Of a DNA stretch of 44,922 nt, positions 7,977 through 40,721 are shown piece by piece; within the stretch, counting starts at the first letter, position 1, and each line of letters opens with the position of its first letter. This DNA comes from a virus. Lineage: Duplodnaviria; Caudoviricetes. The DNA lies in IMG/VR virus record IMGVR_UViG_3300033067_000720, positions 1-44,922 of that record; one strand, written 5' to 3'. The notes under the pieces are model-generated. The model was not told the DNA's origin, did not search any database, and saw only the letters and a list, made by a program, of their open reading frames with translations. A program made the translations under genes and the position numbers.

Positions 7977-8296
7977 ATTCTGAATACGAACTTGTTTACG
8001 ATCACGTAACAAAGAAAACTACATTTGGGCATCATCTGGTCCTGCCAAAGAGACGCGGATACGTAGTAGATCATATCAACGGTAACAAGAAAGACAATCG
8101 ACCAGAGAATCTACGGTATCTACGACATGCCGATAATTGCGTGCATAGGCACTCCGCTACTGCAGGAATTGATTTTATCTATAATAGATGGCGTGCACGC
8201 TACCGAAGCCGTCATCTAGGACTCTTCCTTTCTAGGGAAGAGGCACTCAATGCACGACGGGCTGCTCTACAAGCTGACGAGGAGACGTGGAGATGA
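7973..8296 (+). CDS. HNH endonuclease with AP2-like C-terminus
   Basis: VDHINGNKKDNRPENLR; RWRAR...HLGLF.SREEA; AT-rich. Confidence 0.88.
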   Translation: MNSEYELVYDHVTKKTTFGHHLVLPKRRGYVVDHINGNKKDNRPENLRYLRHADNCVHRHSATAGIDFIYNRWRARYRSRHLGLFLSREEALNARRAALQADEETWR

Positions 8297-8535
8297 ATCA
8301 GAAGAAGGCTAAGCTGCTGCGCTGGCAAGCGCGTAACGGCTATGGAGTGGATCCGCAGACGACGTACCAGATCATTCAGGTGCCAAAGAGCACGACCAAC
8401 GTACGGCGGGGCTCTTTCCCGATCGTGAAGCAGGACGGCACGACGGAGCGCGTCTGGCCGAAGACGGCGAAGCAGGCCCGGCTCAAGCCGGGGTGCGTTC
8501 GGCATCAGTACAAGCAACTCAAGAGGGCCGCATAA
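8293..8535 (+). CDS. Basic hypothetical protein
   Basis: ATGA and TAATG coupling on both sides. Confidence 0.7.
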   Translation: MNQKKAKLLRWQARNGYGVDPQTTYQIIQVPKSTTNVRRGSFPIVKQDGTTERVWPKTAKQARLKPGCVRHQYKQLKRAA

Positions 8536-8957
8536 TGACCGCTCGTAATCTACTGCCCCCTGACCCGCCTGCCGTCATCTGGAATGCTCCTGGGTACGCT
8601 GCTCACCATGATGGGCAGCCTGTGCCTGTGGCTCAGGCCCCGTCGGGGTGCGGGCTTCCCACGGACGACAAGGCCCGCAAGGCCCTGCCGCTCTGGACGT
8701 TCATGATGGCGTACTTCCCGGACGCCTGGCTCGCGGTGGCGAATGTCGCCATCGCCGGCAATGAGCAGCACAATCCTGGTGAGCCTCTGCACTGGGCGCG
8801 GGAGAAGTCCAAGGACCAGATGAACACGGCCTTCCGCCATATGTGGGATCACGGGCGCGGCGTCCAGAAGGACACCGACGGCCAGTATCACCTGGCGAAG
8901 GCTATCTGGCGTCTGTCGGCGGAGCTGCAGCTCATGATCGAGAAGGAGATCAAGTGA
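8535..8957 (+). CDS. dATP/dGTP diphosphohydrolase domain protein (DUF5664-like)
   Basis: RKALP...YFPDA..AVA.V...GNEQHNPGEPLHWAREKS....AFRH...HLAKAIWR. Confidence 0.78.
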   Translation: MTARNLLPPDPPAVIWNAPGYAAHHDGQPVPVAQAPSGCGLPTDDKARKALPLWTFMMAYFPDAWLAVANVAIAGNEQHNPGEPLHWAREKSKDQMNTAFRHMWDHGRGVQKDTDGQYHLAKAIWRLSAELQLMIEKEIK

Positions 8958-9691
8958 AGCTACTGATGCTGGACATCGAGACGGCTCCCAACCTGGCCGC
9001 GACCTGGGGGCTGTATGACCAGAACGTAGGGCTGGACCAGCTCATCGAGCCGGGCTATACCCTGTGCTGGGCGGCGAAGTGGTACGGCAGCAAGGAGATC
9101 GAGTTCGCCTCGATCATGACAGGCGAGAAGCGGATGATCCGCAGGGTGCACAAACTGCTGGATGAGGCAGACGCAGTCTGCCACTACAACGGAACCAAGT
9201 TCGACATCCCCGTACTCAACAAGGAGTTCCTGCTGCAGAAGCTGACTCCTCCGTCCCCCGTCAAGCAGGTAGACCTCCTGCGTACGGCACGCAGCAAGTT
9301 CAGGCTCGCGTCGAACAAGCTGGAGTTCGTGGCGGGGCAGCTGGGGCTGGGGGCGAAGACCAAGCACAAGGGGATGAAGCTGTGGCTGGAGTGTATGAAC
9401 CGGAAGCCGGAAGCATGGAAGACGATGGAGACGTACAACAAGCAGGACGTGGTACTGCTGGAGAAGGTGTACGACCGGCTGCTGCCGTGGATCAAGCACC
9501 ACCCGAACCGCGCAGTGATGGAGGGAGTGGAGTGCTGCCCGAAGTGCGCAGGATCGAACTACCAGGCGCGAGGTTCGTACGTGACTGGTGCCGGCGTCTA
9601 TAAGCGCTACCAGTGCCAGGACTGCGGCTCTTGGTTCCGCGGCGCTAAGCGCCGTCCTACGAGCATCCAAGAGATCAGGGAGATTGCATGA
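8954..9691 (+). CDS. DnaQ/RNase_H_2-type 3'-5' exonuclease with C-terminal Zn ribbon
   Basis: LDIET, HYNGTKFDIP, SNKL, YNKQDV; CPKC...CQDC. Confidence 0.9.
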   Translation: MKLLMLDIETAPNLAATWGLYDQNVGLDQLIEPGYTLCWAAKWYGSKEIEFASIMTGEKRMIRRVHKLLDEADAVCHYNGTKFDIPVLNKEFLLQKLTPPSPVKQVDLLRTARSKFRLASNKLEFVAGQLGLGAKTKHKGMKLWLECMNRKPEAWKTMETYNKQDVVLLEKVYDRLLPWIKHHPNRAVMEGVECCPKCAGSNYQARGSYVTGAGVYKRYQCQDCGSWFRGAKRRPTSIQEIREIA

Positions 9692-9900
9692 GCATCCGTA
9701 AGGAACCGCACGAAAAGACGGTCTTGGTAGACCTAGTACCTGCGGGGAGCAAGACAGTTGCCTATAGGGTGGGCATGTACTCGAAACGAAGTAACTGCAA
9801 GATCATCGATTACAAGATACAGTACGAGGTGAAGTATCTCGTAGAGTTTGATGACGGAACTCGCGACTGGGTTGGAGCGTATGCCGTGGAGGGTGCATGA
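9688..9900 (+). CDS. Hypothetical protein
   Basis: ATGA-coupled ORF. Confidence 0.65.
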   Translation: MSIRKEPHEKTVLVDLVPAGSKTVAYRVGMYSKRSNCKIIDYKIQYEVKYLVEFDDGTRDWVGAYAVEGA

Positions 9901-10358
9901 GCCTTGAAGGACGCGACCTGTCGGATACACAGATCCTGGACGCGACTCAGATGGAGCACGACGCCGAGAAGGCTGCCCATCGTCTTGCGATCAAGCTGCC
10001 CTCCGGGCGTACGCTATACAGCGACTACGGCCCTGCTGAGGAGTTGCGCAAGCGGCTCATCCCCTGGTGCGAGAGCGTTCGCTCTGCGATCGACTCTGAC
10101 ATCCTAGCGGAGCGCGAGGAGAAGAAGGCGCTGTCTGGCAGGGCGGAGATGGCTCCTCCTCCCCCCGAGCTAGGGGGGGCTCAGCCGGAGCTCCTGGGAG
10201 CGAAGGAGTATGCAGAGAAGCAGCTGGCGCACTTCGCTGCCGAAGAGATGCGATTGCGAGAGCAGTCCGATCGCATCATCAAGGCGCTAGGACTGGCGAT
10301 CAAGGAAGTGCAGCGCTGGGGGAAGGTGGCAGAGGCTTTGAAGGAAGATGAGCCATAA
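9897..10358 (+). CDS. Hypothetical protein
   Basis: ATGA-coupled; last large + strand gene before the convergence point. Confidence 0.7.
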   Translation: MSLEGRDLSDTQILDATQMEHDAEKAAHRLAIKLPSGRTLYSDYGPAEELRKRLIPWCESVRSAIDSDILAEREEKKALSGRAEMAPPPPELGGAQPELLGAKEYAEKQLAHFAAEEMRLREQSDRIIKALGLAIKEVQRWGKVAEALKEDEP

Positions 10359-10380
10359 AAAAGGGGCCCCTGCGGGCCCC
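10357..10380 (-). terminator. Intrinsic terminator of the late (minus) operon
   Basis: GGGGCCC-GCAG-GGGCCCC-TTTTTT on the minus strand. Confidence 0.85.
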
Positions 10381-10409
10381 AACGGGAGACGATCGAGGAG
10401 GTGATGTTA

Positions 10410-10463
10410 ATGCCCTTTCCGTACGAGCCGTTTACGCCGTCACCTTACCCAGGGACGACGTAG
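10410..10463 (+). CDS. Possible 17-aa Pro-rich micropeptide MPFPYEPFTPSPYPGTT
   Basis: GGAGGTGA SD 5 nt before ATG. Confidence 0.3.
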   Translation: MPFPYEPFTPSPYPGTT

Positions 10464-10492
10464 AGGGGAGCAGCATCCTCATAAACACTCAG

Positions 10493-10518
10493 CGCCGGCC
10501 TTGTGCCGGCGTCTTCTT
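10493..10518 (+). terminator. Putative intrinsic terminator of the plus operon
   Basis: CGCCGGC-CTTGT-GCCGGCG followed by TCTTCTT. Confidence 0.6.
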
Positions 10519-10900
10519 ATCTGCGTCTCGTGAAGTCAGATCCCTTCAGGCCATCCTTGCGGTGGCCGTAGTAGCGCCACCCTCCGATGCGTACGCCGAG
10601 CCAGTAGGCCCAGCAGGCGATCGTCACGCCTTCGGCCTGCAGCGCCTCGCGGAGCGTAGCGTCTGCCTCCGCTCTCGTCCCGAGCTGGCTGCAGTACAGC
10701 CAATCATGCAGCACCGCCGCACGGCGGCTCTTGCCATTCACATTCAGTAGCCCGCGCAGCGGAGCGGGGATGCTCGCGAGGTCCGTGACGAACCCCGCAG
10801 GCACCTCGATCTTGCGCTTACCCTCCCAGAGTAGCGGGCGCGTCAGCACCCACTCCCCAGGAGCGTCCAGAGCCTGCAGGACAAGGGGCGTCTTGAACAC
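10517..10900 (-). CDS. DUF1353 family protein
   Basis: VPAGFVTDLASIP...AAVLHDWLY...RAEADA...VRIGG. Confidence 0.9.
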   Translation of the reverse strand: MFKTPLVLQALDAPGEWVLTRPLLWEGKRKIEVPAGFVTDLASIPAPLRGLLNVNGKSRRAAVLHDWLYCSQLGTRAEADATLREALQAEGVTIACWAYWLGVRIGGWRYYGHRKDGLKGSDFTRRR

Positions 10901-10902
10901 GG

Positions 10903-11334
10903 CTAATAGAAGGCGGTAGCCTGCTCGACCCAGCCGAGCACGGCGTTCACGGTCACACGCTGCTCAGCGGAGATGATCCCAGCGCCGATCTTGGCGTCAA
11001 GCTCCGCAGTCGCTACGTCCACAACGGCCATCGCCAGGAGCATGTCGGACGGCTCCAGGCCCTTCGTCTTCAGGCGGTTGATGACCGCCGTCTTGATGTC
11101 CGCAACGGTCACGCCCTCGAAGTCGAGCATCTTCTTGGCCTGCCCCACCTCGAACGCCACTGCCGCGGCGCGAGCCGGGCGGTCCGCGAGGTCAGCACGC
11201 TCGATGTACTTCATCGTAGACGCCTGCACGATCAGCTGCACGGCGACGTTGCTCTGCCCGGACTGCATCGTAGCGCAGCCGGCAGAGAGCCCCAGCACGG
11301 CAGCCAGGATGGCTGCATAGAACTTCTTCATCAT
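10903..11334 (-). CDS. Lipoprotein in lysis cassette (possible spanin-like)
   Basis: Basic N-terminus, hydrophobic core and lipobox-like LSAGC. Confidence 0.65.
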   Translation of the reverse strand: MMKKFYAAILAAVLGLSAGCATMQSGQSNVAVQLIVQASTMKYIERADLADRPARAAAVAFEVGQAKKMLDFEGVTVADIKTAVINRLKTKGLEPSDMLLAMAVVDVATAELDAKIGAGIISAEQRVTVNAVLGWVEQATAFY

Positions 11335-11831
11335 GACATATCCTTGGTAGTCAGAGGTAGTTCAAACTCGTGGTACTGCTCTCCGACGTAGAGCGTCGGT
11401 GGAGTATAAAAACGGAACCCGCAACGGAGCAGATTCACCATAGACTGGTAGTTCTTAAGGGAGGTATATGTGATGACTCGGTTGCAGCCCTGCAGGGTCT
11501 TAGCCCATCGGACTCTAGTACGAATCATTCTGCGCTGTAGCCCCTGTCCTTCGGCCCAAGGGAAGACGGCAACGCGGGACAGGAAGACGTAACCTCTCTC
11601 TGGGCGGAAGACCGCGGAGCAGTAGCCAGCAGACGTGCCATCGTCGCTGGTCGCCACCCAGAATGTGTGATCGTCTCCAATCCACTCGTCATTAGGAAAA
11701 GACAAAGCGTTGAGGGCTCGAATCTCTTCAACATCATCAGTCTGTCTGAGGCGGATCACTTGACCCCCTCTAAGTATGCTGCGCAGGCTCGTAGCAGAGT
11801 AGGGCTGTCCTTCATAATCCCGATAGTACAA
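11331..11831 (-). CDS. GNAT-family acetyltransferase
   Basis: LSRVAVFPWAEGQGLQRRMI acetyl-CoA motif A; N..SMVNLLRCGF motif B. Confidence 0.88.
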   Translation of the reverse strand: MYYRDYEGQPYSATSLRSILRGGQVIRLRQTDDVEEIRALNALSFPNDEWIGDDHTFWVATSDDGTSAGYCSAVFRPERGYVFLSRVAVFPWAEGQGLQRRMIRTRVRWAKTLQGCNRVITYTSLKNYQSMVNLLRCGFRFYTPPTLYVGEQYHEFELPLTTKDMS

Positions 11832-11835
11832 TGCA

Positions 11836-12258
11836 TCAGCGAATTCCCTCGTGCTCCAGGCTGAAGTGCCCGCCGTCCTTGAAGCGTCCTCCCCATCTGC
11901 AGTCGGGAGCCAGCCCTTCCCAGTAGACCCCGAGGTCTTCGAACTGCGAGCCGTCTGTCAGAAGCTTCCCGTCCTTGAAGACGTTGAAGTCGACGGCTAG
12001 GCGCTTACGGTGTAGGCTCTTCGAGATGCCGCCGTGCTTGCCGTTGTTGTTGATGGCTGCGGCGAGCGCTGGGAACTGCGGCTGCAGGGAGAGGCAGAGC
12101 GCCCAGCGCTTGTCCCCTCCCAGGGCATTGATCTCCGCCTGCTCGTCGCTGCGGTACGCCTCCCCGAAGGTGAGGGCATATCCGCGGACGTTGGCTTCCC
12201 CGATCAGCTGGGCGATCAGGCGCGTGAAGCGCTGCTGCTTACGGCTGAGCGTTTCCAT
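11836..12258 (-). CDS. Endolysin, M15-family peptidase
   Basis: GEAYR...SLHRKRLAVD...WGGRFKDGGHFS. Confidence 0.92.
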   Translation of the reverse strand: METLSRKQQRFTRLIAQLIGEANVRGYALTFGEAYRSDEQAEINALGGDKRWALCLSLQPQFPALAAAINNNGKHGGISKSLHRKRLAVDFNVFKDGKLLTDGSQFEDLGVYWEGLAPDCRWGGRFKDGGHFSLEHEGIR

Positions 12259-14320
12259 TCTGCATTCCCGCCTCTTCGTTGTCGATGTTCGACATGATCC
12301 ATGCGAGCGCCTGGGCCTTGCCCTGCACGCTACGTTCTCCTGTATTAGCCAGCGTCTTGAGCGCCTGCTGCCCGGCAGAAGTGAAGAACAGCTTCTCCGC
12401 GTTCATGCCGTAGGCCATTCTGGTCACGGCACGAGTGATGAACTCTGGGCTACGGGAGACGAGGTTGATCGTCATTTCTTCAGCCCACAGCGGAGGAGCC
12501 CCCATGTGCGGCTGGTGGTTCATGATGATCGACAGGTGAGCCGCCCCCTTGAGCAAGTCATCCTTCGTCTTCCCCTGCCAGAGCGGCGAGCCCTTCAGCC
12601 CGTCGCGTCCACCGAACAGCGTATCCGAGAATGCCTTGATATCGAAGCGAGAGTCCTGCGCAGCACCAGGGCGGAACGCTGCATCAAGCGCTGTCGCGAT
12701 ACGATCACTCTGCATAGCGCGGAGGACGTCAGGAGCGCGGCGCTCCAGGATGTCAATGGCATAGCGCTGGTCCGCTGGGTTCAGCTTGTAGAACGCCGCG
12801 AGCGTAGCGCCCGGGTTGGCGAACGATTCCTCTCCGCCGAACAGGCGGTTGATGCTGTCGTTTTCCAGACGGCGCAGGGCGTCGCTCTGCTTGGCGTAGG
12901 TCTGACGCACTGCCTGCAGCTTCTCCATCGCCTGAGACGGGGCACCGATCGTGTCGAGGTCCTGCCCAAGGGCAGCGAACAGACGCCCGCGGTAGGCTTC
13001 CAGCTTGCGCTCTGCCTCTGTCAGGATAGCCGCCCCACGAGGGCGGTCCTGTCCTAGTCCGGCCATGAGCTTCTGCAGCTCCATGACACTGAGCCCGTCT
13101 TCTCGGGCAGACTTCGGCATCTGGATCCCCAGCGCCTCGAAGAGGGCTTCGTCGGCCTTGCTGCTAGCAGCCGGCTGCGGGCCGCGCCCGGCGACAGCCT
13201 GTCCTACACGATGGAACGAGTTGGGTAGATCGTCCCCCTTGATGTTGAACTCATTCCCCGCGTCGTTACGAATTGCCTCGAACTCCTGCTGGAGGTTCGT
13301 CAGGCGGAAGCGCTCGTTGTTCCCTGGAAGGGAGGCAACCTCGTTCATACCGCTCACGAACGCCTTACGGCGCTCAGTACGCATTGCCATGTCTAGCACG
13401 TCGACCGTGCGATGGGTCTTCTCTACGATCGCAGGCGAGGTAGCCGGGATGTCCCCGGCGCGAGTGGCCTGCTGAGCCATCTCATCGAAGCGAGCCGCGG
13501 CCTGGTCGGCCTGCGTAGCCATGGCTTCCTGAGCCAGCTTACCCGCAGCGCGCGCTTCATACTTCTGCAGCAAAGGGCTGCCCGTTTCCTGCCCAGGCGT
13601 ATAGCCGACAGGATCTGGAACCGCCTTGCTTCCTGTGAAGAATTGCTTGGCAGACTCCAGCACTGCTCTAGTGCGAGCTCCCTTGGCATTCTCTACAGAG
13701 CGTACGATGAAGTTGCGGAACCCGCCCCATGCTCCCGCGACTACCTGCGTCGCCAAAGGCAGCGCTGCGTTGAGGCTGGTGTTCATCAGACGATCTTCGT
13801 CGTTCTTGGCATACTGCGAAGCGCCGAATAGCGCACCAGCAGAGCTGGCGCGGAACAGGCTGCGGAAGTAGCCCACACCCTTTCCGACGGTGCTTGCCGC
13901 GCCTCCGGCAGGAATAGCCCCGGCGAGGATGTCGCCGGCCTGGCTCACGCCCTGTGCCTTGGCATCCGCAGCGGCGCGGTTCTGCGCTACGATCTCGTTG
14001 TAGCGATCGTAGTACGCCTTGGCGGAGTCCGAGAACGCAGCGGGACCGCGCAGCACGAGCTGCCCGGCTCCTTCCGGAATGGACATGGCCGTGCGCCCTA
14101 GGAGCGTAGGCCCGACCTGACCCTGTGCCTCTGCGGCACGAGTCTGGCTCTGGTACGCCTGATCCATCGTCGGAGGCTGGGCAGGGGCAGCCGCCTGCTG
14201 CGGAGCGGATTCCGCTGCGAGAGCGCTACGTACGCGCTCCATAGCAGCTGTGTCTCCCGAAGACTCAGCGCGCTTGTACGCGTCTACAAGCTGCTGCTTC
14301 TGGTCATCAGTCAGTGGCAT
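12239..14320 (-). CDS. Internal virion / DNA ejection protein
   Basis: Large helical Ala-rich protein in the podovirus ejection-gene position. Confidence 0.7.
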   Translation of the reverse strand: MPLTDDQKQQLVDAYKRAESSGDTAAMERVRSALAAESAPQQAAAPAQPPTMDQAYQSQTRAAEAQGQVGPTLLGRTAMSIPEGAGQLVLRGPAAFSDSAKAYYDRYNEIVAQNRAAADAKAQGVSQAGDILAGAIPAGGAASTVGKGVGYFRSLFRASSAGALFGASQYAKNDEDRLMNTSLNAALPLATQVVAGAWGGFRNFIVRSVENAKGARTRAVLESAKQFFTGSKAVPDPVGYTPGQETGSPLLQKYEARAAGKLAQEAMATQADQAAARFDEMAQQATRAGDIPATSPAIVEKTHRTVDVLDMAMRTERRKAFVSGMNEVASLPGNNERFRLTNLQQEFEAIRNDAGNEFNIKGDDLPNSFHRVGQAVAGRGPQPAASSKADEALFEALGIQMPKSAREDGLSVMELQKLMAGLGQDRPRGAAILTEAERKLEAYRGRLFAALGQDLDTIGAPSQAMEKLQAVRQTYAKQSDALRRLENDSINRLFGGEESFANPGATLAAFYKLNPADQRYAIDILERRAPDVLRAMQSDRIATALDAAFRPGAAQDSRFDIKAFSDTLFGGRDGLKGSPLWQGKTKDDLLKGAAHLSIIMNHQPHMGAPPLWAEEMTINLVSRSPEFITRAVTRMAYGMNAEKLFFTSAGQQALKTLANTGERSVQGKAQALAWIMSNIDNEEAGMQNGNAQP

Positions 14321-29884: not shown

Positions 29885-31710
29885 TACTTGTAGCCGATTC
29901 CGATAACGTGTTCGCTGGCCGACACCGCCCCAGTGTCAGAGTTAGCAGCGCCCGTAGTCAGAGCCCACGCGATACCTGTCGTGAACTCGATACCAGGACC
30001 GAAGCTTAGAGCAATACCAGCTCCGGCTGTATTTCCTGGAATAGGAAGCACGAGGACTGGCGTGTCAGTACCTACCGTAGGAGCGGTGGCCTTGTTATAG
30101 AGCTTCAGGTAGCGCATCGCCGCGTTTACGTTGCTAGCGGTAATGAACCCGACCTGTCCGGCAGATCCCTTAAGGCTGGTTGCGTTAGTGCTGGCCGCGG
30201 ATACTGTGTGGCTAGGAGTCCAGCCACCTGCCGTGTGAGCGTACTGAGCAGTAACCTGCTTGCGGTCAAGCGTCATACGGCCAATACCGATGTCGCCTTC
30301 GTCCACCGAGTCGGTAGCTGTCTCGTCTGCTAGGAAGCCAGTAGGACTGACGCGCGACGTCGCTACTGTGAAAGCCGAGTCGTCCGCTAGCTCGTTTGTG
30401 TTTCTGACATATAGAGAACCGACAGAGTCCGAAGTGAACGGGACGTAGTCGCCGGTAGCGCTAGCAAGCGTAGCCTGGGTGTCCTGACGTACAGCCAGGA
30501 CCATCACACCTGTGTCACCGGAAGCGTGGGCAGCGTCTTCCGCCTTGCCCAGGTGAGCCGCCGACGTTCCCGGAGTTACAGATGTGCCAATGGTAGCTAG
30601 GTTGGTAACAGTAGCTAGGGTCTGCGCGGCGGCTAGGTTTACCGTACCAATGACCTTGGTAGTTTCCGCTGCAAGCGTGACCGTCTGTGCAGCAGTAGAG
30701 TCTAGGGCTACCCAAAGAGCGCCCCTCGCGTTAGTCCGGCCCTGAGTATAGTCGCCATCGACCGGAGTTAGTGTTGCTAGTGCATCGTCGCGTACAAGTA
30801 GGGCCAGAGTCCCTGTGTCCGTTGCGCCGGCTGCCGTGTCGACGGCGTACTGAGTCCCGCCTCCGCCACCGGAGACACGAAGAGAGCCGTCGGACGTTAC
30901 GCTAAGCGCAGCGAAATCGCCGTCTGCTGATACCCCGCTAGAAGCGGAGTCTCGGCGAACGGCAAGCATCATGATGCCTTCTTCCCCGCCTGCCGCTGCT
31001 GAATCTTCTGCGATGCCAGCAACTCCGCCAGAAGCTACCGCGACACGAACAGCGCCTCCTGTAGTCAGCGACAATGCGCCTGCATTACCGTTTGTGAGCG
31101 TAGGAGCGGACGTTTCGACAACGCCGGCAACCGGAGTTACAGATGTCGTAGCGCGAGTAAAGGCGGCAGCATCGGTTAGGGCTGTTCCGCCCGAACTAGA
31201 GCCTGCCTTAATGTTGACCTTCAGGTAGCCGTTGGCGTCAACCTGCAATGCAGAATAGTCCCCTGTGGCGCTGACCGATGAGGCGTCTGCGTCCTGGCGC
31301 ACCGCAAGAGCTAGAACACCGGTATCACCAGATACGTGAGCAGCATCTTCTGCCTTTCCTAGATTGGTCGCTCCTGTTCCAGGAACTACGCTAGTTACGT
31401 CGACGTCTCCGATGTCAACACCGGAGTTGGCCGCAAGCTTTCCGATAGCGTTTGTACCGGCAGGAAGAGCCGTGCCAACGTCTACAGTTAGGGATCCTCC
31501 GTTGTCATCTACAGACAGGACGCCAGTCGAATCACTCGCGACCGTAACGCGCAACGCTCCGGCTTCTGTACCGCCGCCAGAGGCCGCGTCTGCAGCAGAT
31601 CCGTCCGCACCGACGCTCAGCTTTACACGCTGATACTTGACTCCAGCGATGTCATCACTGGCGATGACGTCGCCACCAGAGCCAGCATTCAGGGTTGTGT
31701 TATCGGCCAT
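29884..31710 (-). CDS. Repeat-containing fibre-like structural protein (608 aa)
   Basis: ~48-aa internal repeats, e.g. GKAEDAAHxSGDTGVxxLAVRQD...GDY twice, plus degenerate copies. Confidence 0.7.
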   Translation of the reverse strand: MADNTTLNAGSGGDVIASDDIAGVKYQRVKLSVGADGSAADAASGGGTEAGALRVTVASDSTGVLSVDDNGGSLTVDVGTALPAGTNAIGKLAANSGVDIGDVDVTSVVPGTGATNLGKAEDAAHVSGDTGVLALAVRQDADASSVSATGDYSALQVDANGYLKVNIKAGSSSGGTALTDAAAFTRATTSVTPVAGVVETSAPTLTNGNAGALSLTTGGAVRVAVASGGVAGIAEDSAAAGGEEGIMMLAVRRDSASSGVSADGDFAALSVTSDGSLRVSGGGGGTQYAVDTAAGATDTGTLALLVRDDALATLTPVDGDYTQGRTNARGALWVALDSTAAQTVTLAAETTKVIGTVNLAAAQTLATVTNLATIGTSVTPGTSAAHLGKAEDAAHASGDTGVMVLAVRQDTQATLASATGDYVPFTSDSVGSLYVRNTNELADDSAFTVATSRVSPTGFLADETATDSVDEGDIGIGRMTLDRKQVTAQYAHTAGGWTPSHTVSAASTNATSLKGSAGQVGFITASNVNAAMRYLKLYNKATAPTVGTDTPVLVLPIPGNTAGAGIALSFGPGIEFTTGIAWALTTGAANSDTGAVSASEHVIGIGYK

Positions 31711-31747
31711 TTAGCGGTTCCTTGAGAGAAGAGGGGGATTGCGGCAG

Positions 31748-32113
31748 TTAGACTGCAACGATCGATTCGATCTGCACCGCGACGTCAGCGGAGCCGACGC
31801 GCAATGTGCGGAAATAGTCGTACGGATTTCCGTTGCCATCCAAAGGCACTGGCATGACCTTCTCCCCGCCAGGGAACAGGATGCTGGTAGTAGCGGCGGA
31901 GGCTGCTGCCATGCCTGTGTTGCCGAAGCGAAGCCAGATGGCGTCTGTGGCACGGACTTCGATTACTGCTGCTCCTGCAGGAAGCGCGGCTTCTGCAGCC
32001 GACGTAGCAGCCGCTGTGTTGTTGACGCGCGTTCCTGATCCGTAGACCAGTGGCATCGGTGCGCCGTTTGGGTAGTGAACAACCTTCGTCAGCTTGGACT
32101 GGCCTACTGGCAT
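31748..32113 (-). CDS. Hypothetical structural protein
   Basis: AGGA SD; first CDS after the tRNA array. Confidence 0.7.
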   Translation of the reverse strand: MPVGQSKLTKVVHYPNGAPMPLVYGSGTRVNNTAAATSAAEAALPAGAAVIEVRATDAIWLRFGNTGMAAASAATTSILFPGGEKVMPVPLDGNGNPYDYFRTLRVGSADVAVQIESIVAV

Positions 32114-32135
32114 GAGTTTTCCTGGAGGAGGGAGA

Positions 32136-32209
32136 TGGATGAGAGAGAAGGACTCGGACCTTCATCGCCGGGGTCAAAGGCCGGCATCCTGCCGTTAGAC
32201 GATCTCTCA
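32136..32209 (-). tRNA. tRNA-Gln(TTG)
   Basis: Cloverleaf; loop CTTTGAC; encoded CCA. Confidence 0.88.
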
Positions 32210-32215
32210 AGAATG

Positions 32216-32290
32216 TGGCTCCATCACTACGAATCGAACGTAGCTCGCAACCGTTAACAGCGGTGTCGCACGCCTTGTGCGTTTGATGGA
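32216..32290 (-). tRNA. tRNA-Asn(GTT)
   Basis: Loop CTGTTAA; T-loop TTCGATT; GCCA end. Confidence 0.92.
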
Positions 32291-32323
32291 ACATTCGTAA
32301 ATGTTCGCCAACGCGAACATGAA

Positions 32324-32399
32324 TGGTAGCGGGACTCGGAGTTGCACCGAGATTACCGGGTTATGAGCCCAGCTAGGAGCCTTTCCCTACCTGCCCGCT
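32324..32399 (-). tRNA. tRNA-Met(CAT), initiator-like
   Basis: GGG-CTCATAA-CCC anticodon arm; ACCA end. Confidence 0.85.
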
Positions 32400-32405
32400 A
32401 TTGAG

Positions 32406-32476
32406 TGGTACTCGATCACCGAATCGAACGGTGCCCTGCTGCCTTGTAAGAGCTGCATCCGCCCAGCGGATCGAGC
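32406..32476 (-). tRNA. tRNA-Val(TAC) with minimal D-arm
   Basis: 7-bp acceptor, loop CTTACAA, canonical T-arm, ACCA; D region reduced to CCGC-TGG-GCGG. Confidence 0.7.
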
Positions 32477-32563
32477 ATTAATCGGAGGAGTTGTACCGAC
32501 TGAGCGCTGATCCTCGTCTAATCGGTACAGTTGCGGAGAATAGAGAGTCTAATCTCCGCAGAT

Positions 32564-32651
32564 TGGCGGAAGGTTGTGAACTCGAATCACATGCCCCAGA
32601 GGGCACAGTTCGTTTAGCAAACGGCTGCCAGCCCTGCCGGCGTAACCTTCC
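32564..32651 (-). tRNA. tRNA-Ser(GCT)
   Basis: Loop TTGCTAA; long variable arm; GCCA. Confidence 0.9.
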
Positions 32652-32656
32652 ATGAT

Positions 32657-32730
32657 TGGAGCGGAATGGGAGAATCAAACTCCCTTTGGCTGCTTGGAAG
32701 GCAGCTGCACAATCAATATGCCAATCCCGC
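32657..32730 (-). tRNA. tRNA-Gly(TCC)
   Basis: GCGG...CCGC-TCCA acceptor; loop CTTCCAA. Confidence 0.92.
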
Positions 32731-32735
32731 GTGTG

Positions 32736-32812
32736 TGGTGCTCTCTGACTCGATTTGCACGGTCCATCTCCCGCTTACAAGGCGGGCGCATCGCTATCAA
32801 TGCTTAAAGAGC
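32736..32812 (-). tRNA. tRNA-Thr(TGT)
   Basis: CCCGC-CTTGTAA-GCGGG; ACCA; T-stem has a bulge. Confidence 0.85.
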
Positions 32813-32818
32813 ATGAAA

Positions 32819-32902
32819 TGGTACCCTGCCCAGGATTTGCACCCGGACGCCTCTCGGCGCTGCGTTCTAAGCGCAGTGTGTCTGCTGTTCCACCAGCAGG
32901 GT
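32819..32902 (-). tRNA. tRNA-Leu(TAG)
   Basis: CTGCG-CTTAGAA-CGCAG; variable arm; ACCA. Confidence 0.92.
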
Positions 32903-32910
32903 ATATTCGG

Positions 32911-32951
32911 GCCACCGTTTTGTTTATCGTCGGACGGGGCGAGGAACCGAC
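32911..32951 (-). ncRNA. preQ1-I-like pseudoknot element
   Basis: GTCGG-TTCCTCGCCCCGT-CCGAC-GATAAACAAAACGGTGGC: 5-bp P1, GGUUC junction, A-rich tail. Confidence 0.45.
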
Positions 32952-32966
32952 AGCTCTCAAGTTGTA

Positions 32967-33044
32967 TGGTACGGACTCCCGGGGTCGAACCGGGAAGCGC
33001 GGGGGTTTGAGCCCCGCAGGTTTGCCTATTTCCGTCAAGTCCGT
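32967..33044 (-). tRNA. tRNA-Leu(CAA) with short variable loop
   Basis: GCGGGG-CTCAAAC-CCCCGC; T-loop TTCGACC; ACCA. Confidence 0.85.
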
Positions 33045-33045
33045 A

Positions 33046-33073
33046 TGGACACGCACCACGGAGTCAAACCGTA
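33046..33073 (-). pseudogene. tRNA 3' remnant (T-arm, 3' acceptor strand, CCA)
   Basis: TACGG-TTTGACT-CCGTG-GTGCGTG-T-CCA with no 5' half. Confidence 0.6.
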
Positions 33074-33075
33074 TT

Positions 33076-33163
33076 TGGCGGAAGGATAGTCGAATCGAAC
33101 GCTATGCCCGTAGGACACGATCTGTTTTCAAGACAGTCCTGGACCCAGTCCAGTTAACCTTCC
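33076..33163 (-). tRNA. tRNA-Ser(TGA)
   Basis: Loop CTTGAAA; long variable arm; GCCA. Confidence 0.9.
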
Positions 33164-33209
33164 AAAAGGAGCAAGCTCCACTTGCGACGGTCGAGCCGTC
33201 GCGGCGAGA

Positions 33210-33283
33210 TGGTTGGCCTCCAGGGAATCGCACCCCGATCTCTGAGTTCAGAGCTCAACGTCTTGCTGTTAGACGAGAGGCCG
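33210..33283 (-). tRNA. tRNA-Gln(CTG)
   Basis: TGAG-CTCTGAA-CTCA; ACCA. Confidence 0.88.
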
Positions 33284-33298
33284 ATAGACGGGCGATTG

Positions 33299-33694
33299 TT
33301 AGATCGCCCTGTAATTCAGTTCCGGGACTGTGACGTCGCTGACGCCCCATCCCCGCTTGTTTGCGTACACCTTCCCTTCGGAGAAGTACGTCTGCAGCTG
33401 CTCAAGCGAAGAGACCAGGGTCCCGCCAGCGCCTTGCTCCATCTGGCGAGACGAAACTACAACAGGAACCTGTTCAATACCTAGCTGCTCCGCAGCCCAG
33501 AGGCGATTGTTGCCTCTCATGACCGAAAACCGCGAATCCTCGTGACCCCAGACTACCAAAGGCGTGTGTATGCCGTTCTCGGCAATGTCCTTCAGGAAGG
33601 GCGCGTGCCACGCTTGTCGTTGGATCGGATGTCCGCTGAGCAAGACCCGCGGGAATCTCTCGAAGTGAAACAGAAAGTAAGGCAGCTCTCGCAT
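33299..33694 (-). CDS. ParB/sulfiredoxin N-terminal-domain protein
   Basis: DIAENGIHTPLVV...VMRGNNRLWAAEQLGIEQVPVVV. Confidence 0.82.
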   Translation of the reverse strand: MRELPYFLFHFERFPRVLLSGHPIQRQAWHAPFLKDIAENGIHTPLVVWGHEDSRFSVMRGNNRLWAAEQLGIEQVPVVVSSRQMEQGAGGTLVSSLEQLQTYFSEGKVYANKRGWGVSDVTVPELNYRAI

Positions 33695-33725
33695 AGGCTA
33701 CAGGAGTGCTCCAATGAGGAAGCGG

Positions 33726-34094
33726 TCAACTCCGACCATCATCAGCGAGGGCTGTCTTAGCATCTGGCATCCCGTTACGGGCTTCATCACAAGCCCGTCT
33801 ATGAGTACGCTCTCGGTGGCAGTTGGCGCACACGAGATCGCACTTAGCTATCTCTTCCAGGATTGTCGCAACACTCCAGTGGGACTGGGCAACCCTAGCT
33901 AGGTTCTTCGTCTTTACCCCTCTTACGTGGTCAAAGTCCATCACGTACGGAGGATAAGACACCCCACAATCTGTACAGGGGAGGGCTTTTAGGCTGGTGA
34001 TTAGAGCCTTATTACGCGCCCGTCGGTCTTCCCATACCTGCGGGTTCTTTGCAGACCAGGCGCGATGGTAAGCCCGCCGAGCGTCTGCTGACAT
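33726..34094 (-). CDS. HNH endonuclease
   Basis: PCTDCG...MDFDHVRG...KCDLVCANCHRERT; start moved to MSADARR because the upstream part of the ORF overlaps tRNA-Trp. Confidence 0.88.
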   Translation of the reverse strand: MSADARRAYHRAWSAKNPQVWEDRRARNKALITSLKALPCTDCGVSYPPYVMDFDHVRGVKTKNLARVAQSHWSVATILEEIAKCDLVCANCHRERTHRRACDEARNGMPDAKTALADDGRS

Positions 34095-34102
34095 CGCCAA
34101 GC

Positions 34103-34173
34103 TGGCACCTCGTAATGGAATCGAACCACTATCAGCGGACTTTGGAGATCCATGTCCGGCCACCGGACGAGGC
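34103..34173 (-). tRNA. tRNA-Trp(CCA) with minimal D-arm
   Basis: Acceptor GCCTCGT/ACGAGGT; loop CTCCAAA; T-loop TTCGATT; GCCA; D region CCGG-TGG-CCGG. Confidence 0.75.
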
Positions 34174-34181
34174 ACTATCCT

Positions 34182-34256
34182 TGGGGTGAGGCGTAGGACT
34201 CGAACCTACTCCGCAGGGGTCACATCCCAACGTGCTGCCGTTAACACCAGCCCCAC
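34182..34256 (-). tRNA. tRNA-His(GTG)
   Basis: Loop ATGTGAC; C73 discriminator; CCA. Confidence 0.9.
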
Positions 34257-34262
34257 AGAAAT

Positions 34263-34416
34263 TGGTGCAGAGGGAAGGATTTGAACCTCCACGGACGACG
34301 CAACCTTTGGTTGCTAGTTGCGCCTGAAGGCGCTTCCTAGCCGACCTGCGGGGTATAGGCTGATTGTTAGATCAGCCGGCTGCAGCCGCGTGCCCTTCCT
34401 AGTGGGCGTCCTCTAC
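34263..34416 (-). ncRNA. 154-nt tRNA-like RNA with enlarged middle domain
   Basis: Acceptor GTAGAGG/CCTCTGC-A-CCA; D-arm GCCC-ACTAGGAA-GGGC; T-arm GGAGG-TTCAAAT-CCTTC; ~100-nt multi-hairpin insert. Confidence 0.7.
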
Positions 34417-34698
34417 GTTCGGTCTGCGGCATGACTTCGTCTGCCGCGGGATTCAATGCGTGCTTCCGCGTATCGCGGGATTCTGACTCTTCGCAGGAGA
34501 CCGCAGTCGACTGCGATCGGGTTCCTGGCTCTTCGCAGCGTGCTGGAAGCGAAAGCTGCGATTCCTGGTTCCCCCTCTAAGAGCGACTGAGGACTTCCTT
34601 AACGGAAGTCCGAAGGAGCGAGAGCGGATCGGCTTCCTTTGGCTTCGCCAGAAGCCGAAGAGGCTCAACCCCCCCAAACCCCCCCTTTTTACGAGGCT

Positions 34699-34739
34699 CT
34701 TACTAGAAGTGTCTTGCATTTTCTGGTCGTTGTCACAAG
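34699..34739 (-). promoter_or_regulatory. Putative phage-sigma promoter P3 (tRNA/late operon)
   Basis: CTTGTGAC-N17-AGACACTTCTAGTAAG on the minus strand; same spacing as P1 and P2. Confidence 0.7.
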
Positions 34740-35107
34740 AATTTCACCGGCAAAAGCGGAGATCCTTGATTTCCTTGCGAATATAGTTTTGCAAAGATTT
34801 GTCAATGATGCGAGTCATTCTCATTTAGCCCTAGTCACGGGCCCTCCGGGCCCAGGTAGCCGTCCTTCGAGCGGACTAGGAGCCAGTAGAGCGCTCTGGC
34901 CTTCGAGGAGCAGGCCCCCAGCAGAACAGCGAACCTGAATCGTTAAAGTTTTCTTAACGATCCGATATTTGGGCTCTTTTTCCCTGGGCAGAGGAGCGCC
35001 TGCTAATTTCCTGAAGCGGACGGTCTTCGAGCGCACCGTTTTGGGGCAGGAATCGCTCTTTTTTCTCGTACGAGACGGCGGGTGTCCACGTTTACGTATC
35101 CCCAGGC

Positions 35108-35121
35108 CCGGGGTACCCCGG
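35108..35121. repeat. 14-bp perfect palindrome in the non-coding late/early boundary
   Basis: CCGGGGTACCCCGG. Confidence 0.6.
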
Positions 35122-35606
35122 TCCTCGCAGGCTGCGCGCCGCTGCGCGGCGCCGCTCGCATGCGTGCTCTCGTGCTGCCCGGCTGTCCGCTGGCCGTGCG
35201 TCGCGGTAGGATCCCATGCGTGTGCGCTACCGCGCAGCGGCCATGCGCTAGGTAGGGCAGGGAGGCAGGGGGGCTATGCCCGGCGAATCCTCGGACCGCG
35301 TGAGCCTACGGACTCGGGCCCGGCACTACCCGCTTGCGTCTAGTCCGCTCCCGCTCTCGCCTAGCCTGTCGGATGCGCTCAGCGTAGCGCATGCGCTGCC
35401 ACCATAGCAGCGCGCTTGCGTCCCTCCTATCCCCGTCCAGCATGCTTGCCAGTGTCGGCGTCATGGCACGTATAGCAGAATCAGGCCCGATAGCGTGCCC
35501 AGTCCGCACCAGAAATAGAACCATGCCGGCTCACGCCAGTCTGCCCATATTCCCCAGAAGGAAAGCAGCGCGCTAAGCGCTGCCATCCCGTTCAGCGCTG
35601 CGGCGC

Positions 35607-36423: not shown

Positions 36424-36451
36424 TTGACAAGGATGTCCGGGATGCTATGCT
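36424..36451 (+). promoter_or_regulatory. Rightward host sigma70-type early promoter
   Basis: TTGACA-N16-TATGCT with extended -10 TG. Confidence 0.75.
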
Positions 36452-36485
36452 TGCCTTCGTTCAATCACTTCTAGGAGTCAAGACA

Positions 36486-36917
36486 ATGCGTAACTTCCAT
36501 CCCTCTAACCAAGCACAGCTGGTACTGCTATCCGCGTATCGCCCGGATCGCTCGCTGAAGGAGAATGGCGACGCATCGTATGCGCTGGCCGAGCAATTGC
36601 GCGGCGCCAATCTCGGCTTCGAAGTCTGCCGGGGGTTCTGGGAAGGCAAAGAGGAGCAATCCTTTTGTGTCTACCTTGGGGAATCCGGCATTGCCGGCGA
36701 CATCTATGCGGGCATCGAATCCCTTGCGCGCCAATTCCATCAGGACGCAATCCTGCACGTCGATTCACAAGGCCTTGTCTATCTCGATTGGCTGCAGGAT
36801 ACGCGCGATGAGCTGATTGGCGTTTGGCGCGAACTGCCGGAAGGTGCAGAGCTCCCGCAAGGATACACGGTATTCCCTGACGGACGGACATTCTACGCGG
36901 CGCCTATTGGCGCCTAG
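36486..36917 (+). CDS. S-adenosylmethionine lyase (T3 SAMase-like)
   Basis: Matches T3 SAMase motifs as recalled from memory: LSAYR~VSAFR, EEQS~EEKT, HQDAIL~EQDCVL, GVWRELPEGA~GSFQEVPKGA; first early gene. Confidence 0.8.
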   Translation: MRNFHPSNQAQLVLLSAYRPDRSLKENGDASYALAEQLRGANLGFEVCRGFWEGKEEQSFCVYLGESGIAGDIYAGIESLARQFHQDAILHVDSQGLVYLDWLQDTRDELIGVWRELPEGAELPQGYTVFPDGRTFYAAPIGA

Positions 36918-38108: not shown

Positions 38109-38500
38109 TGCAATCGGATGCCCTATACACCGCGCTGCAGGGTCTCGCCGGCAATGCCAAGAAGCTCGCCGGCGATGACTGGGAATCGCTCTTGCATGAT
38201 GCCTACATCAAGGCACGCGAGACTAAGAGCGTTCCTGACAAGCTGGGGCCGTGGCTCAATCGCATGCTACATACGCTGTACTGGGATAGCATCCGCTGGA
38301 TGCATCGTGGGCATGCCCAGTACGGGCAGAGGTTCATACAGCTCGAAGAGCCTACGCAATGCGAGTCTCGCGAGCCATTCCAGCTGACGCCTACAGAAGC
38401 GGAAGCGTTCGTGCTGCAGCTCGAAGAGCACCGCGCTGCCTACGGATCCGATTTGTCTGATATGCTCCCCCTCTCACTTGCCGAACGGAGACGCCGATGA
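38105..38500 (+). CDS. ECF-sigma region-2-like protein without a clear region 4
   Basis: DWESLLHDAYIKA...LGPWLNRMLHTLYWDSIR resembles the ECF sigma2 consensus D.EDL.Q..F.KA...WL......N...D..R. Confidence 0.55.
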   Translation: MMQSDALYTALQGLAGNAKKLAGDDWESLLHDAYIKARETKSVPDKLGPWLNRMLHTLYWDSIRWMHRGHAQYGQRFIQLEEPTQCESREPFQLTPTEAEAFVLQLEEHRAAYGSDLSDMLPLSLAERRRR

Positions 38501-39204
38501 AAACCACCCCAATTACCAACGATGCCGCCAAGGAACTGCGCTACAAGGCGCTCTATGGCAACAAGGCAGCACGAGACCAACTCTGGGTTGCTGCCTACGC
38601 GACGGTTTCGATGGTCGCCGGGCGGCTGCGCCGGGACGGCCTACTGACCTCCGTGGCATTGGACGACGAGGACCTGATACAAGAAGGCATCCTTGCCGCA
38701 GGCAGGGCGCTCGACAAGTGGGATCCGGAGAAGGGGGCATTCTCCACCTGGGTCACGCATAGGGCCGCAGGGGCGATGCTTACGTATGCCGCCAAGGTGG
38801 CCAAGGGCGGCCTCACGGGCCGCCACGAACGCGCCGTACTGGTCGACATGGACGAAGCCGTGGGGGAGGAGGAGGGCTACAGCGACGGAGATCGCCCGGG
38901 AGAGACGCAAGGCGCGGCCTATACGCTCGGGGATACACTAGCGGAGGACGAGGATCCGGAGATTGCAGAATCGCAGAAGATCAAGGACGTTGCCGGCCTG
39001 ATCGGCCTACTTGAGGGCGGAGAAGCCTACCGTGCTATTTGCCTGTACTTCGGGGTTGGCGCCAAGTTCGAGCATACGTTCAGGGAGATCGCCGACGTTC
39101 TCAACCTGGGCTCGCATGAGGCGGCGCGCCGGCTGGTAGCGGAGGCGATCGACACGATCCGCGTGCGCTCCCGCTCGAAAGTTGTGCAACTGAGGAGGAA
39201 GTGA
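38497..39204 (+). CDS. RNA polymerase sigma-70 family factor
   Basis: Region 2 EDLIQEGILAAGRALDKWDPEKGAFSTW; region 4 LYFG...HTFREIADVLNLGSHEAARRL. Confidence 0.9.
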   Translation: MKTTPITNDAAKELRYKALYGNKAARDQLWVAAYATVSMVAGRLRRDGLLTSVALDDEDLIQEGILAAGRALDKWDPEKGAFSTWVTHRAAGAMLTYAAKVAKGGLTGRHERAVLVDMDEAVGEEEGYSDGDRPGETQGAAYTLGDTLAEDEDPEIAESQKIKDVAGLIGLLEGGEAYRAICLYFGVGAKFEHTFREIADVLNLGSHEAARRLVAEAIDTIRVRSRSKVVQLRRK

Positions 39205-39905: not shown

Positions 39906-40117
39906 TGGCAGAGCGGCATGAGCTGTTCGAGGAGCTGGACGCCTGGGACCCGCGATGGAGGGAACACTATCCCTCCGTCCGGACTGCTGCCGGCGCAGCA
40001 GGGCTCGTGCATCTCTTCGTAGCCTACCGGGCTACGCCGGCAGGACAAGAGTACGAGCGGCTGCTGCGGGGCGTGCCAGACGCCTACAGCGCGATTCAGG
40101 AGATCAAGAATGGATGA
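39905..40117 (+). CDS. Hypothetical protein
   Basis: TGATG coupling. Confidence 0.65.
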   Translation: MAERHELFEELDAWDPRWREHYPSVRTAAGAAGLVHLFVAYRATPAGQEYERLLRGVPDAYSAIQEIKNG

Positions 40118-40721
40118 TGGGACGTCATACCAGGATCGCCTTAGAAAAGAGGATTGGGAAGTAAAGCCCTGTCCTCTTGCGGAGGCCCAGGCGCTTGTGC
40201 GGCTCTACCATTATGCCCGTGGAGGCAGTAATACAGCAGTATATACACACGGGCTCTATCACAAGGGAGAGGGGGCTCTTTATGGAGTGGTCTGGTGGCT
40301 TCCACCCACAAGAGTTGCCTGTGAGTCCGTAGACACAGCGCGATGGAAGCAGGTCTTGTCGCTGACTAGAATGGTAGTAAGCCCTAGATGCCCAAAAAAT
40401 GCGTGTTCATTTCTGCTGGCTAGGAGTGTGGCTCTGATCAAAAAAGAGCGTCGATTTGTGGCTCTCGTAACGTACGCGGACGAGTCTCAGGGGCACACTG
40501 GGGGAGTCTATAAGGCGGCTGGCTGGCACTATGTAGGACGGACGGGACCGTACCCAAGGTGGCTTGACTCGCAAGGAAAGCAAGTATCCCCAAAGGCCAC
40601 AAAGAACAGGACTAAGGCGGAGATGGAGGCCCTAGGGCATCGCCTGGTGGGTAGATTTCATAAGCACAAGTATGTCCTGATTTTAGAACCGAAAAAGCAG
40701 GGAGTCCAGAATGACCAGTGA
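40110..40721 (+). CDS. Mom-family DNA modification protein (GNAT fold)
   Basis: HY...LSLTRMVV...KNACSFLL...TYADESQGHTGGVYKAAGWHYVG. Confidence 0.8.
   Translation: MDDGTSYQDRLRKEDWEVKPCPLAEAQALVRLYHYARGGSNTAVYTHGLYHKGEGALYGVVWWLPPTRVACESVDTARWKQVLSLTRMVVSPRCPKNACSFLLARSVALIKKERRFVALVTYADESQGHTGGVYKAAGWHYVGRTGPYPRWLDSQGKQVSPKATKNRTKAEMEALGHRLVGRFHKHKYVLILEPKKQGVQNDQ

Follow-up and report, generated by a model that had tools for sequence, protein, structure and literature searches.

At the head of the phage tRNA array lies a 154-nt element that is, judged from its sequence, a class II tRNA-Tyr(GUA) gene carrying two insertions, one of 27 nt in the anticodon loop and one of 41 nt in the variable arm. 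The window in which it was found, a stretch of 44,922 bases, is one whole virus record; an earlier note on this DNA gave no strand, and the present analysis sets the element on the minus strand. The explanation that we favour, with slightly better than even confidence, is that the two insertions are short hairpins, likely generated by fold-back (template-switch) copying, and that the RNA likely folds and is trimmed like a tRNA without reading a codon. Part of the region 33900-34900 is held by 20 public runs from 15 studies, six of which were compared as contigs; runs are given by X numbers below. The element is composed as follows:

34416-34263, minus strand: the 154-nt element, first tRNA-shaped unit of the phage tRNA array
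34383..34416, minus strand: 5' part of tRNA-Tyr, i.e. the 5' strands of the acceptor (G1) and anticodon stems with the D arm between them, followed by C32, U33 and G34 (from the fold and a D-arm design as in related tRNA-Tyr; the X17 match resumes at 34383)
34356..34382, minus strand: insert 1, 27 nt, anticodon loop (absent from X17 contig 17 and X5 contig 11; present in X2, X15 and X16)
34337..34355, minus strand: native U35 and A36, C37 (non-canonical) and C38, then the 3' strand of the anticodon stem and the 5' portion of the long variable arm (17 of 18 letters as in the X17 joint, by eye)
34296..34336, minus strand: insert 2, 41 nt, variable arm, with a boundary that may slide by 1 (skipped exactly in X16, joint 34295-34337; absent from X17 and X5 contig 11; present in X2 and X15)
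34263..34295, minus strand: end of the variable arm, T arm (34274-34290), acceptor 3' strand, A73 and encoded CCA (from the fold; the motif finds ordinary tRNA-Tyr)

The outer frame is that of a tRNA. The acceptor, D and T arms and the ACCA end read from the sequence in the earlier note are all present as a 7-bp acceptor, a 4-bp D stem, a 5-bp T stem with canonical T loop and A73-CCA, and the element is likewise confirmed as the first tRNA-shaped unit of the array. Its fold of −68.4 kcal/mol is better than that of 200 out of 200 dinucleotide shuffles (z = −4.6), with pair probabilities of ~1.0 for the acceptor and D stems and of 0.6-0.8 for the T stem. Measured against the tRNA-Tyr identity elements given in PMC9976931, the frame of a functional tRNA-Tyr is complete (7-bp acceptor, D arm, 5-bp T arm, A73, CCA and G1-C72), whereas the 7-nt loop with G34, U35, A36 and a purine at position 37 is broken by 27 nt and would contain C37 once these were excised. 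ARAGORN at its defaults and Rfam make no tRNA call on the full element; removal of both inserts by their coordinates leaves an 86-nt gene that ARAGORN calls tRNA-Tyr(GTA). For insert 1, enumeration of the registers places it best between G34 and U35, while the 37/38 register costs one extra base change. Two other assignments were tried and rejected. A tRNA-Leu(CAG) with a 56-nt intron, obtained from ARAGORN with introns and a relaxed score, was dismissed because the same setting yields 79 calls genome-wide, and a Cys reading with the loop CU GCA G was dropped, as position 73 is A rather than U and the relatives are Tyr.

The interior had been taken for a single multibranched domain in place of the anticodon and variable arms. 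Instead, both native arms persist, each split by an insertion. Among the four hairpins proposed for this part, GGCTGAT/ATCAGCC and GCGCC/GGCGC are borne out with probabilities near 1.0, while CGGC/GCCG and CAACC/GGTTG reach only ~0.17 because they compete with a cross-pairing at 0.82; the loop closed by CGGC/GCCG, given as TGCAA, is actually TGCA. Insert 1 forms a hairpin of 7 bp with a 6-nt loop at 34358-34377, and insert 2 folds into two hairpins at 34320-34333 (5 bp, TTCA loop) and 34300-34314 (6 bp, AAA loop).

Several known kinds of structured RNA were considered. The P3-P7 core of a group I intron needs about 200 nt; the inserts measure 27 and 41 nt and Rfam scans gave no match, in line with the earlier dismissal of such an intron. 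The earlier dismissal of a tmRNA also stands, since the element has A3-U70 rather than G3.U70, possesses a D stem and receives no tmRNA call. T4 and T5 encode stable non-tRNA RNAs in their tRNA clusters; for similarity to such RNAs, a blastn search of the element against 50,697 phage records returned only 26-nt matches at the 3' end. In Rfam, the database in which the earlier note wished to see the element checked, no family matches at gathering score, and with E up to 10 the sole overlap is a weak sX4 match (20.9 bits versus a cut-off of 70). An allo-tRNA was rejected as well: this type has an 8/4 or 9/3 acceptor branch according to PMC5389517, and the element has 7/5 acceptor and T stems.

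The insert boundaries and the polymorphism between strains follow from the public contigs. A contig of run X17 (1123 nt, depth 56.6) carries an identical tRNA-His and skips 34297-34382, with 18 letters in between. Read on the minus strand, these 18 letters, of which 17 equal window letters 34338-34355, give an ordinary anticodon loop with GUA and A37 and a short class II variable arm, so that the corresponding locus of X17 encodes a plain tRNA-Tyr of 86 nt. Upstream of it, the 716 aligned nt of flank contain 95 differing letters and 36 gaps. A second uninserted tRNA-Tyr with the same variable arm is found on a 9953-nt contig of the DNA run X5. Both inserts are present in X2 (0 differences) and X15 (1 difference) over the compared stretch. 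X2, a public DNA run from a study other than the best holder's, matches 34182-34430 letter for letter, which rules out an assembly artefact, and X15 combines both inserts with the flank variants that X17 shows upstream. In at least three studies the allele with both inserts is near-identical, and it stands on two flank haplotypes about 13% apart. An intermediate form occurs on an X16 contig (462 nt, depth 3.9) that keeps insert 1 and skips the 41 nt of insert 2 exactly.

Further inserts concern the next gene of the array, which is intact in the window:

34182..34256, minus strand: tRNA-His(GUG), next gene after the element (ARAGORN)

On the X16 contig, this tRNA-His bears a 26-nt hairpin insert between positions 37 and 38 as well as a 38-nt double-hairpin insert in the T loop, with unchanged exons in both cases. 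Moreover, X2 and X16 share a 19-nt hairpin with an 8-nt duplication directly after the 3' end of tRNA-His, one arm of which can pair with this tRNA's own CCA. Contig 10 of X5 (151 nt, depth 2.8) shows the hairpin loop of insert 1 exactly inverted and differs in the first insert base. Contigs of such low depth may contain errors; the one-insert allele and the His inserts come from the single X16 contig, the inverted loop from a single X5 contig. X15 to X17 are labelled RNA-Seq and were rated probably DNA or uncertain, X16 being rated probably DNA; the uninserted and doubly inserted forms also occur in DNA runs, the one-insert form in X16 only. X20, the one run on record as RNA, contains tRNA-His exactly and has no cover over the element in this contig-level comparison. 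The two insertions vary between close strains and are probably young.

These alleles bear directly on the earlier proposal that the element may belong to an undescribed class of tRNA-like non-coding RNA. An old, conserved class with a multibranched domain of its own would fit the stable fold, the intact tRNA frame and the lack of an Rfam family. Its supposed domain, which consists of Tyr arms and two strain-variable insertions, is however absent or partial in close strains and absent from all distant relatives found, and the uninserted alleles have already largely refuted this reading; we regard it as very improbable. A scan of metagenome contigs with a variable-arm/T-arm motif gave 10 loci, all of them ordinary tRNA-Tyr(GUA) genes of 85-87 nt. 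Two related array types, L003 and L016, linked via their terminase genes, start with a plain tRNA-Tyr, in L016 as the first gene and in L003 as the second after tRNA-His. No other Tyr gene was detected in the window by ARAGORN (default and relaxed) or Rfam. Exact-pattern scans with the 3' end of the element in viral contigs and with its 5' part in metagenome contigs yielded 0 matches each, in collections from which records very close to the window may be missing. In GTDB genomes, the variable-arm/T-arm motif also had 0 matches, hence no host is inferred. The single match to the inserted-allele pattern in viral contigs was rejected as a chance match in a coding region. No second lineage with the interior of the element was found in the phage records, viral contigs, metagenome contigs, plasmids or genomes searched, and the inserts gave only chance matches, with no shared sequence family, among public phages, plasmids, viral contigs and genomes.

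The array as a whole runs on the minus strand from 34416 to 32136. ARAGORN at its defaults finds eight tRNA genes. Five more (Trp, two Ser, Thr and Asn) come from relaxed settings and from Rfam, which makes 13 besides the element. With 14 units versus more than 25 in L003, the array of the window appears to be shrinking. Three of its tRNAs, Trp (34103-34173), Ser(UGA) (33077-33163) and Val (32406-32476), have a D arm formed by a perfect 6-bp hairpin with a 3-nt UGG loop, and the Val tRNA of L003 has a similarly short D arm. At 33047-33074, the window holds an orphan tRNA 3' half consisting of T arm, acceptor 3' strand and CCA that resembles the ends of the Cys tRNAs of L003 and L016. Tandem or unusual units were also noted elsewhere: the arrays of L003 (5137-5229), L016 (7187-7280) and L247 (3102-3197) each contain a tRNA-shaped gene of 93-96 nt that combines the anticodon UAU with a long variable arm and is assigned to Ile by ARAGORN, and in L016 two tRNA-shaped units with normal acceptor and T arms and odd interiors (4761-4930) directly follow the first tRNA-Tyr. 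The stretch 34420-34720, upstream of the element, is a leader rich in hairpins that also contains short repeats and from which X17 has diverged by about 13%. A search of 31700-35600 detected no sigma-70-like promoter; the phage encodes its own sigma factor (38497-39204). A ParB-like gene (33299-33694) is embedded in the array, and neither its product nor a 121-aa protein has relatives in viral contigs. The other phage genes include a family A polymerase, primase, helicase, the sigma factor, terminase, portal and capsid. A SAM lyase (36447-36917), a Mom-like DNA modification protein (40110-40721) and a dATP/dGTP diphosphohydrolase domain (8493-8957) are encoded as well, suggesting anti-restriction and base modification functions. 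Relatives of the terminase and portal lie between N gaps at 7509-12645 of locus L242, on a MAG chromosome labelled Candidatus Eiseniibacteriota; this locus contains no tRNA array, may be misbinned and was not used as host evidence.

Conceivably, the hairpins could be tiny protein-spliced introns that are cut from the RNA, with the ends rejoined to give a working tRNA-Tyr. The four inserts within tRNAs cost no native base, the His exons of X16 are unchanged, one His insert sits at the canonical 37/38 position, and the 41-nt skip came from a run labelled RNA-Seq. Furthermore, Lak megaphages carry unexplained tRNA introns, one of them in tRNA-Tyr (PMC6784885, Table S6). Set against this, the X16 contig with the skip also has flank and extra inserts, and its run was rated probably DNA. 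An archaeal-type tRNA intron is marked by a bulge-helix-bulge at the two splice sites; with a 4-bp central helix and both closing pairs, this motif was complete in 0 of 14 registers. RNA ligase, splicing endonuclease and reverse transcriptase were not found among the scanned phage ORFs (overlapping sets of 30 and 44 against PHROGs and 27 against Pfam), many of which have no family. The only cut that restores GUA, after G34, leaves C37, as opposed to the A37 present in all 12 related Tyr genes and in all 13 other tRNAs of the window. Excision at 37/38 would place a Cys anticodon, GCA, on an A73 body, and its middle base differs in X5; PMC9976931 states that Cys identity requires U73. The inserts also share neither ends nor sequence. 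Given that the searches revealed neither a bulge-helix-bulge nor an Rfam match nor a splicing enzyme, and that removal of insert 1 leaves the abnormal C37, splicing is unlikely, to the extent that we would give it only about one chance in eight.

Selection for a different role, namely that of a decoy or inhibitor, is doubtful as well, if a shade less so. Here, the inserts would have been retained for the ability of the RNA to bind defence nucleases that cut tRNA-Tyr (or to bind TyrRS/LeuRS or EF-Tu) without serving as a normal substrate. The unchanged recurrence of the allele in several studies would fit, and such a role is attractive because Septu and retron-Eco7 are described as cutting the Tyr variable loop. 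Yet an anticodon-changed phage tRNA-Tyr no longer rescued the phage from retron-Eco7 in the experiments of PMC11555353, the plain gene is retained in close relatives, and tRNA-His has been struck, too, by different hairpins. The inserts display no covariation, and a clasp between the two was rejected, since their cross-pairing is matched by 26% of shuffles.

A third possibility involves the neighbourhood of the element, where a nuclease gene starts 170 nt downstream behind a further tRNA gene:

34103..34173, minus strand: tRNA-Trp(CCA), within the 408-nt block 33773-34180
33726..34094, minus strand: free-standing zinc-finger HNH endonuclease gene, 122 aa (PHROGs HNH, E 4e-25; conserved CxxC, DH and CxNCH)

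The HNH family comprises 1698 proteins and occurs in 172 phage records; the gene is absent from the four related records searched, three of which are near complete. In the main X17 contig, the 408-nt block of Trp and HNH is replaced by 68 other letters, and fragments of the HNH gene from other runs show 0-1 differing letters against 9-13% divergence in their flanks, the pattern that a cassette of recent spread would leave. The inserts could be a homing shield or hitch-hiker that disrupts the DNA target of the adjacent HNH nuclease (or of another tRNA-gene nuclease) and travels with it during mixed infections, in the manner of MobA and the insert in T4 gene 60. The proximity of the gene, the joint lack of block and inserts in the main X17 contig, the low divergence of the HNH pieces and the presence of the same inserts on two flank haplotypes all speak for such a scenario. 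HNH homologues directly follow a tRNA gene in four of four loci inspected, three of which were chosen for a tRNA under the match. There are precedents: SegB cuts within T-even tRNA genes at a T-loop-like motif (PMC13096335, PMC2988022), and the gene 60 insert is reported to block MobA cutting (10.1101/2022.08.31.505936). However, the X2 and X16 contigs possess inserts but continue after tRNA-His with sequence other than Trp-HNH. The linkage of HNH and inserts is seen in the window and in no other contig. Insert-bearing tRNA bodies occur in 0 of 7 other arrays checked, four of which have the HNH family, and there is no evident way to restore function, unlike in gene 60. We place homing marginally above splicing and below the decoy role, all three being improbable. 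Breaks made by the HNH nuclease could still trigger or favour the inserts.

With respect to their origin, fold-back copying is the likeliest source of the hairpins, at roughly even chances. Template switching during replication is described to create hairpins and invert loops (PMC8794818), and the inverted loop of insert 1 in X5 contig 10 would be its clearest sign. Several of the inserts resemble copies of neighbouring DNA. Insert 1 begins with the reverse complement of the preceding 6 nt, and insert 2 contains the reverse complement of a 6-mer spanning its junction; a reverse-complement match near the junction has P = 0.14 and 0.15 in a local-template test, respectively, each weak alone. The His T-loop insert combines, by eye, a 7-nt reverse-complement copy of adjacent DNA with a 7-nt direct copy of the His D arm (P = 0.04 from a match by eye and a computed null, weak alone), and the 37/38 insert of tRNA-His has no local reverse-complement match. 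Since three further, unrelated hairpin inserts lie in or just after tRNA-His, the insertion process is not specific to Tyr. The core of insert 1 is found once more in the array:

33290-33309, minus strand: second hairpin with the 12-nt core of insert 1 and a different, fully paired stem, overlapping the stop codon of the ParB-like gene, which directly precedes tRNA-Gln(CUG)

The stop codon lies in the loop of this hairpin. Random 27-mers give a match of 12 nt or longer in 0.6% of cases against the 2.4-kb array and in 14% genome-wide. A REP-like or mobile hairpin family was rejected, as it needs many copies and the window has two copies of one core; database searches gave seven viral matches, all in one coding context, and five scattered genome matches at chance level.

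According to the favoured explanation, the anticodon-loop insert would have arrived first and ended decoding, an order taken from one low-depth contig, and the variable-arm insert would have followed. Insert 1 is the probable disabling insert, because a variable-arm insert alone is tolerated in E. coli tRNA-Tyr even in translation (PMC5397188) and because the native anticodon stem has a pairing probability of 0 in the one- and two-insert alleles, with the Tyr determinants G34 and U35 separated. Neither insert touches the acceptor, D or T arm, and processing of the array precursor is therefore expected to release the transcript much as it would an engineered tRNA scaffold; such scaffolds, with the anticodon arm exchanged, were expressed and processed in E. 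coli (PMC3753655). Excision of the element would let the downstream tRNAs mature, which would make the allele nearly neutral, and the predicted product is a stable, non-decoding tRNA-shaped RNA. The element is hence likely a tRNA that lost its decoding ability recently, not the representative of a new RNA class, and probably has no selected new function. Other decay remnants in the array fit a reading as decay.

Some observations do not sit easily with this explanation. None of the four inserts inside tRNAs deletes a native base or falls within a stem strand (P about 0.09), a placement that fits better with selection or a dedicated insertion process than with sloppy repair. Furthermore, a neutral pseudogene can account for a near-identical allele across studies and on two haplotypes only if it is young and recombines. 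Finally, tRNA genes are otherwise strongly conserved in the phage lineage, and loss of Tyr decoding should therefore carry a cost. A more far-reaching reading, to which we assign about one chance in four, is an active process that places hairpins of 19-41 nt precisely into tRNA loops (anticodon, variable and T) without deletion, the products being kept because they work. They would then be tRNA introns of the smallest size or, alternatively, tRNA-Tyr decoys that resist the nucleases of Septu- or retron-type defences; the intron variant needs a cut-and-rejoin activity in the bacterial host. Around the array, hairpins with a C-RNR-G triloop are overrepresented (on the minus strand, 5 of 11), a post hoc finding that is not repeated in G002 or G003.

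Taken together, the element is an interrupted phage tRNA gene, a variant of something known. In the literature that was searched, largely open-access, no description came up of hairpin insertions of 19-41 nt that vary between strains in the loops of phage tRNAs. Alleles with zero, one and two inserts circulate in wastewater and river samples, which shows how few steps can lead from an ordinary phage tRNA gene to a tRNA look-alike. This natural series offers a test of whether insertions in phage tRNAs, such as the Lak introns, are spliced, decoys, blocks to homing nucleases or scars. It is also a warning that close strains should be compared before long tRNA-shaped phage RNAs are named new classes.

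Among known systems, the closest is the bacterial and phage class II tRNA-Tyr(GUA) (RF00005; the subtype of L246-L255), with which the element shares G1-C72, A73, the D-arm design, the variable/T-arm sequence and the position at the array head; it differs by the anticodon loop split by 27 nt, the variable arm extended by 41 nt and C37. Engineered tRNA scaffolds and the V-loop Spinach tRNA-Tyr (PMC3753655, PMC5397188) also combine foreign hairpins in the anticodon or variable arm with an intact acceptor/D/T frame, whereas the present element is natural and would be kept from decoding by its anticodon insert; among the constructs of PMC5397188, fusions to the T loop proved unstable. The T4 gene 60 insert of 50 nt with MobA, and SegB in the tRNA region of T4 and T6 (10.1101/2022.08.31.505936, PMC2988022, PMC13096335), provide parallels of a short structured insert near a free-standing nuclease and of a nuclease that lies beside or cuts tRNA genes, respectively. 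In contrast to gene 60, the present inserts are mutually unrelated, also occur without an adjacent HNH gene and have no known rescue of gene function. Mitochondrial repetitive or double hairpin elements (PMC2800124) are likewise short, G+C-rich single or double hairpins with a patchy distribution among close relatives in tolerant gene parts, and they are reported there as not removed from transcripts; they form many-copy repeat families, while the present inserts share only one 12-nt core, found twice. Finally, the “enigmatic” tRNA introns of Lak megaphages (PMC6784885) are anticodon-loop inserts in phage tRNA genes, including tRNA-Tyr(GTA), and, as far as that account describes them, are like these inserts present or absent among related genomes, identical where common and mostly without an Rfam match. 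The Lak introns measure 79-114 nt, are A+T-rich, lie 3' of the anticodon and in one case are tRNA-like, whereas the inserts described here are G+C-rich perfect hairpins of 19-41 nt that also occupy the variable arm, the T loop and the site after CCA, with position 37 altered.
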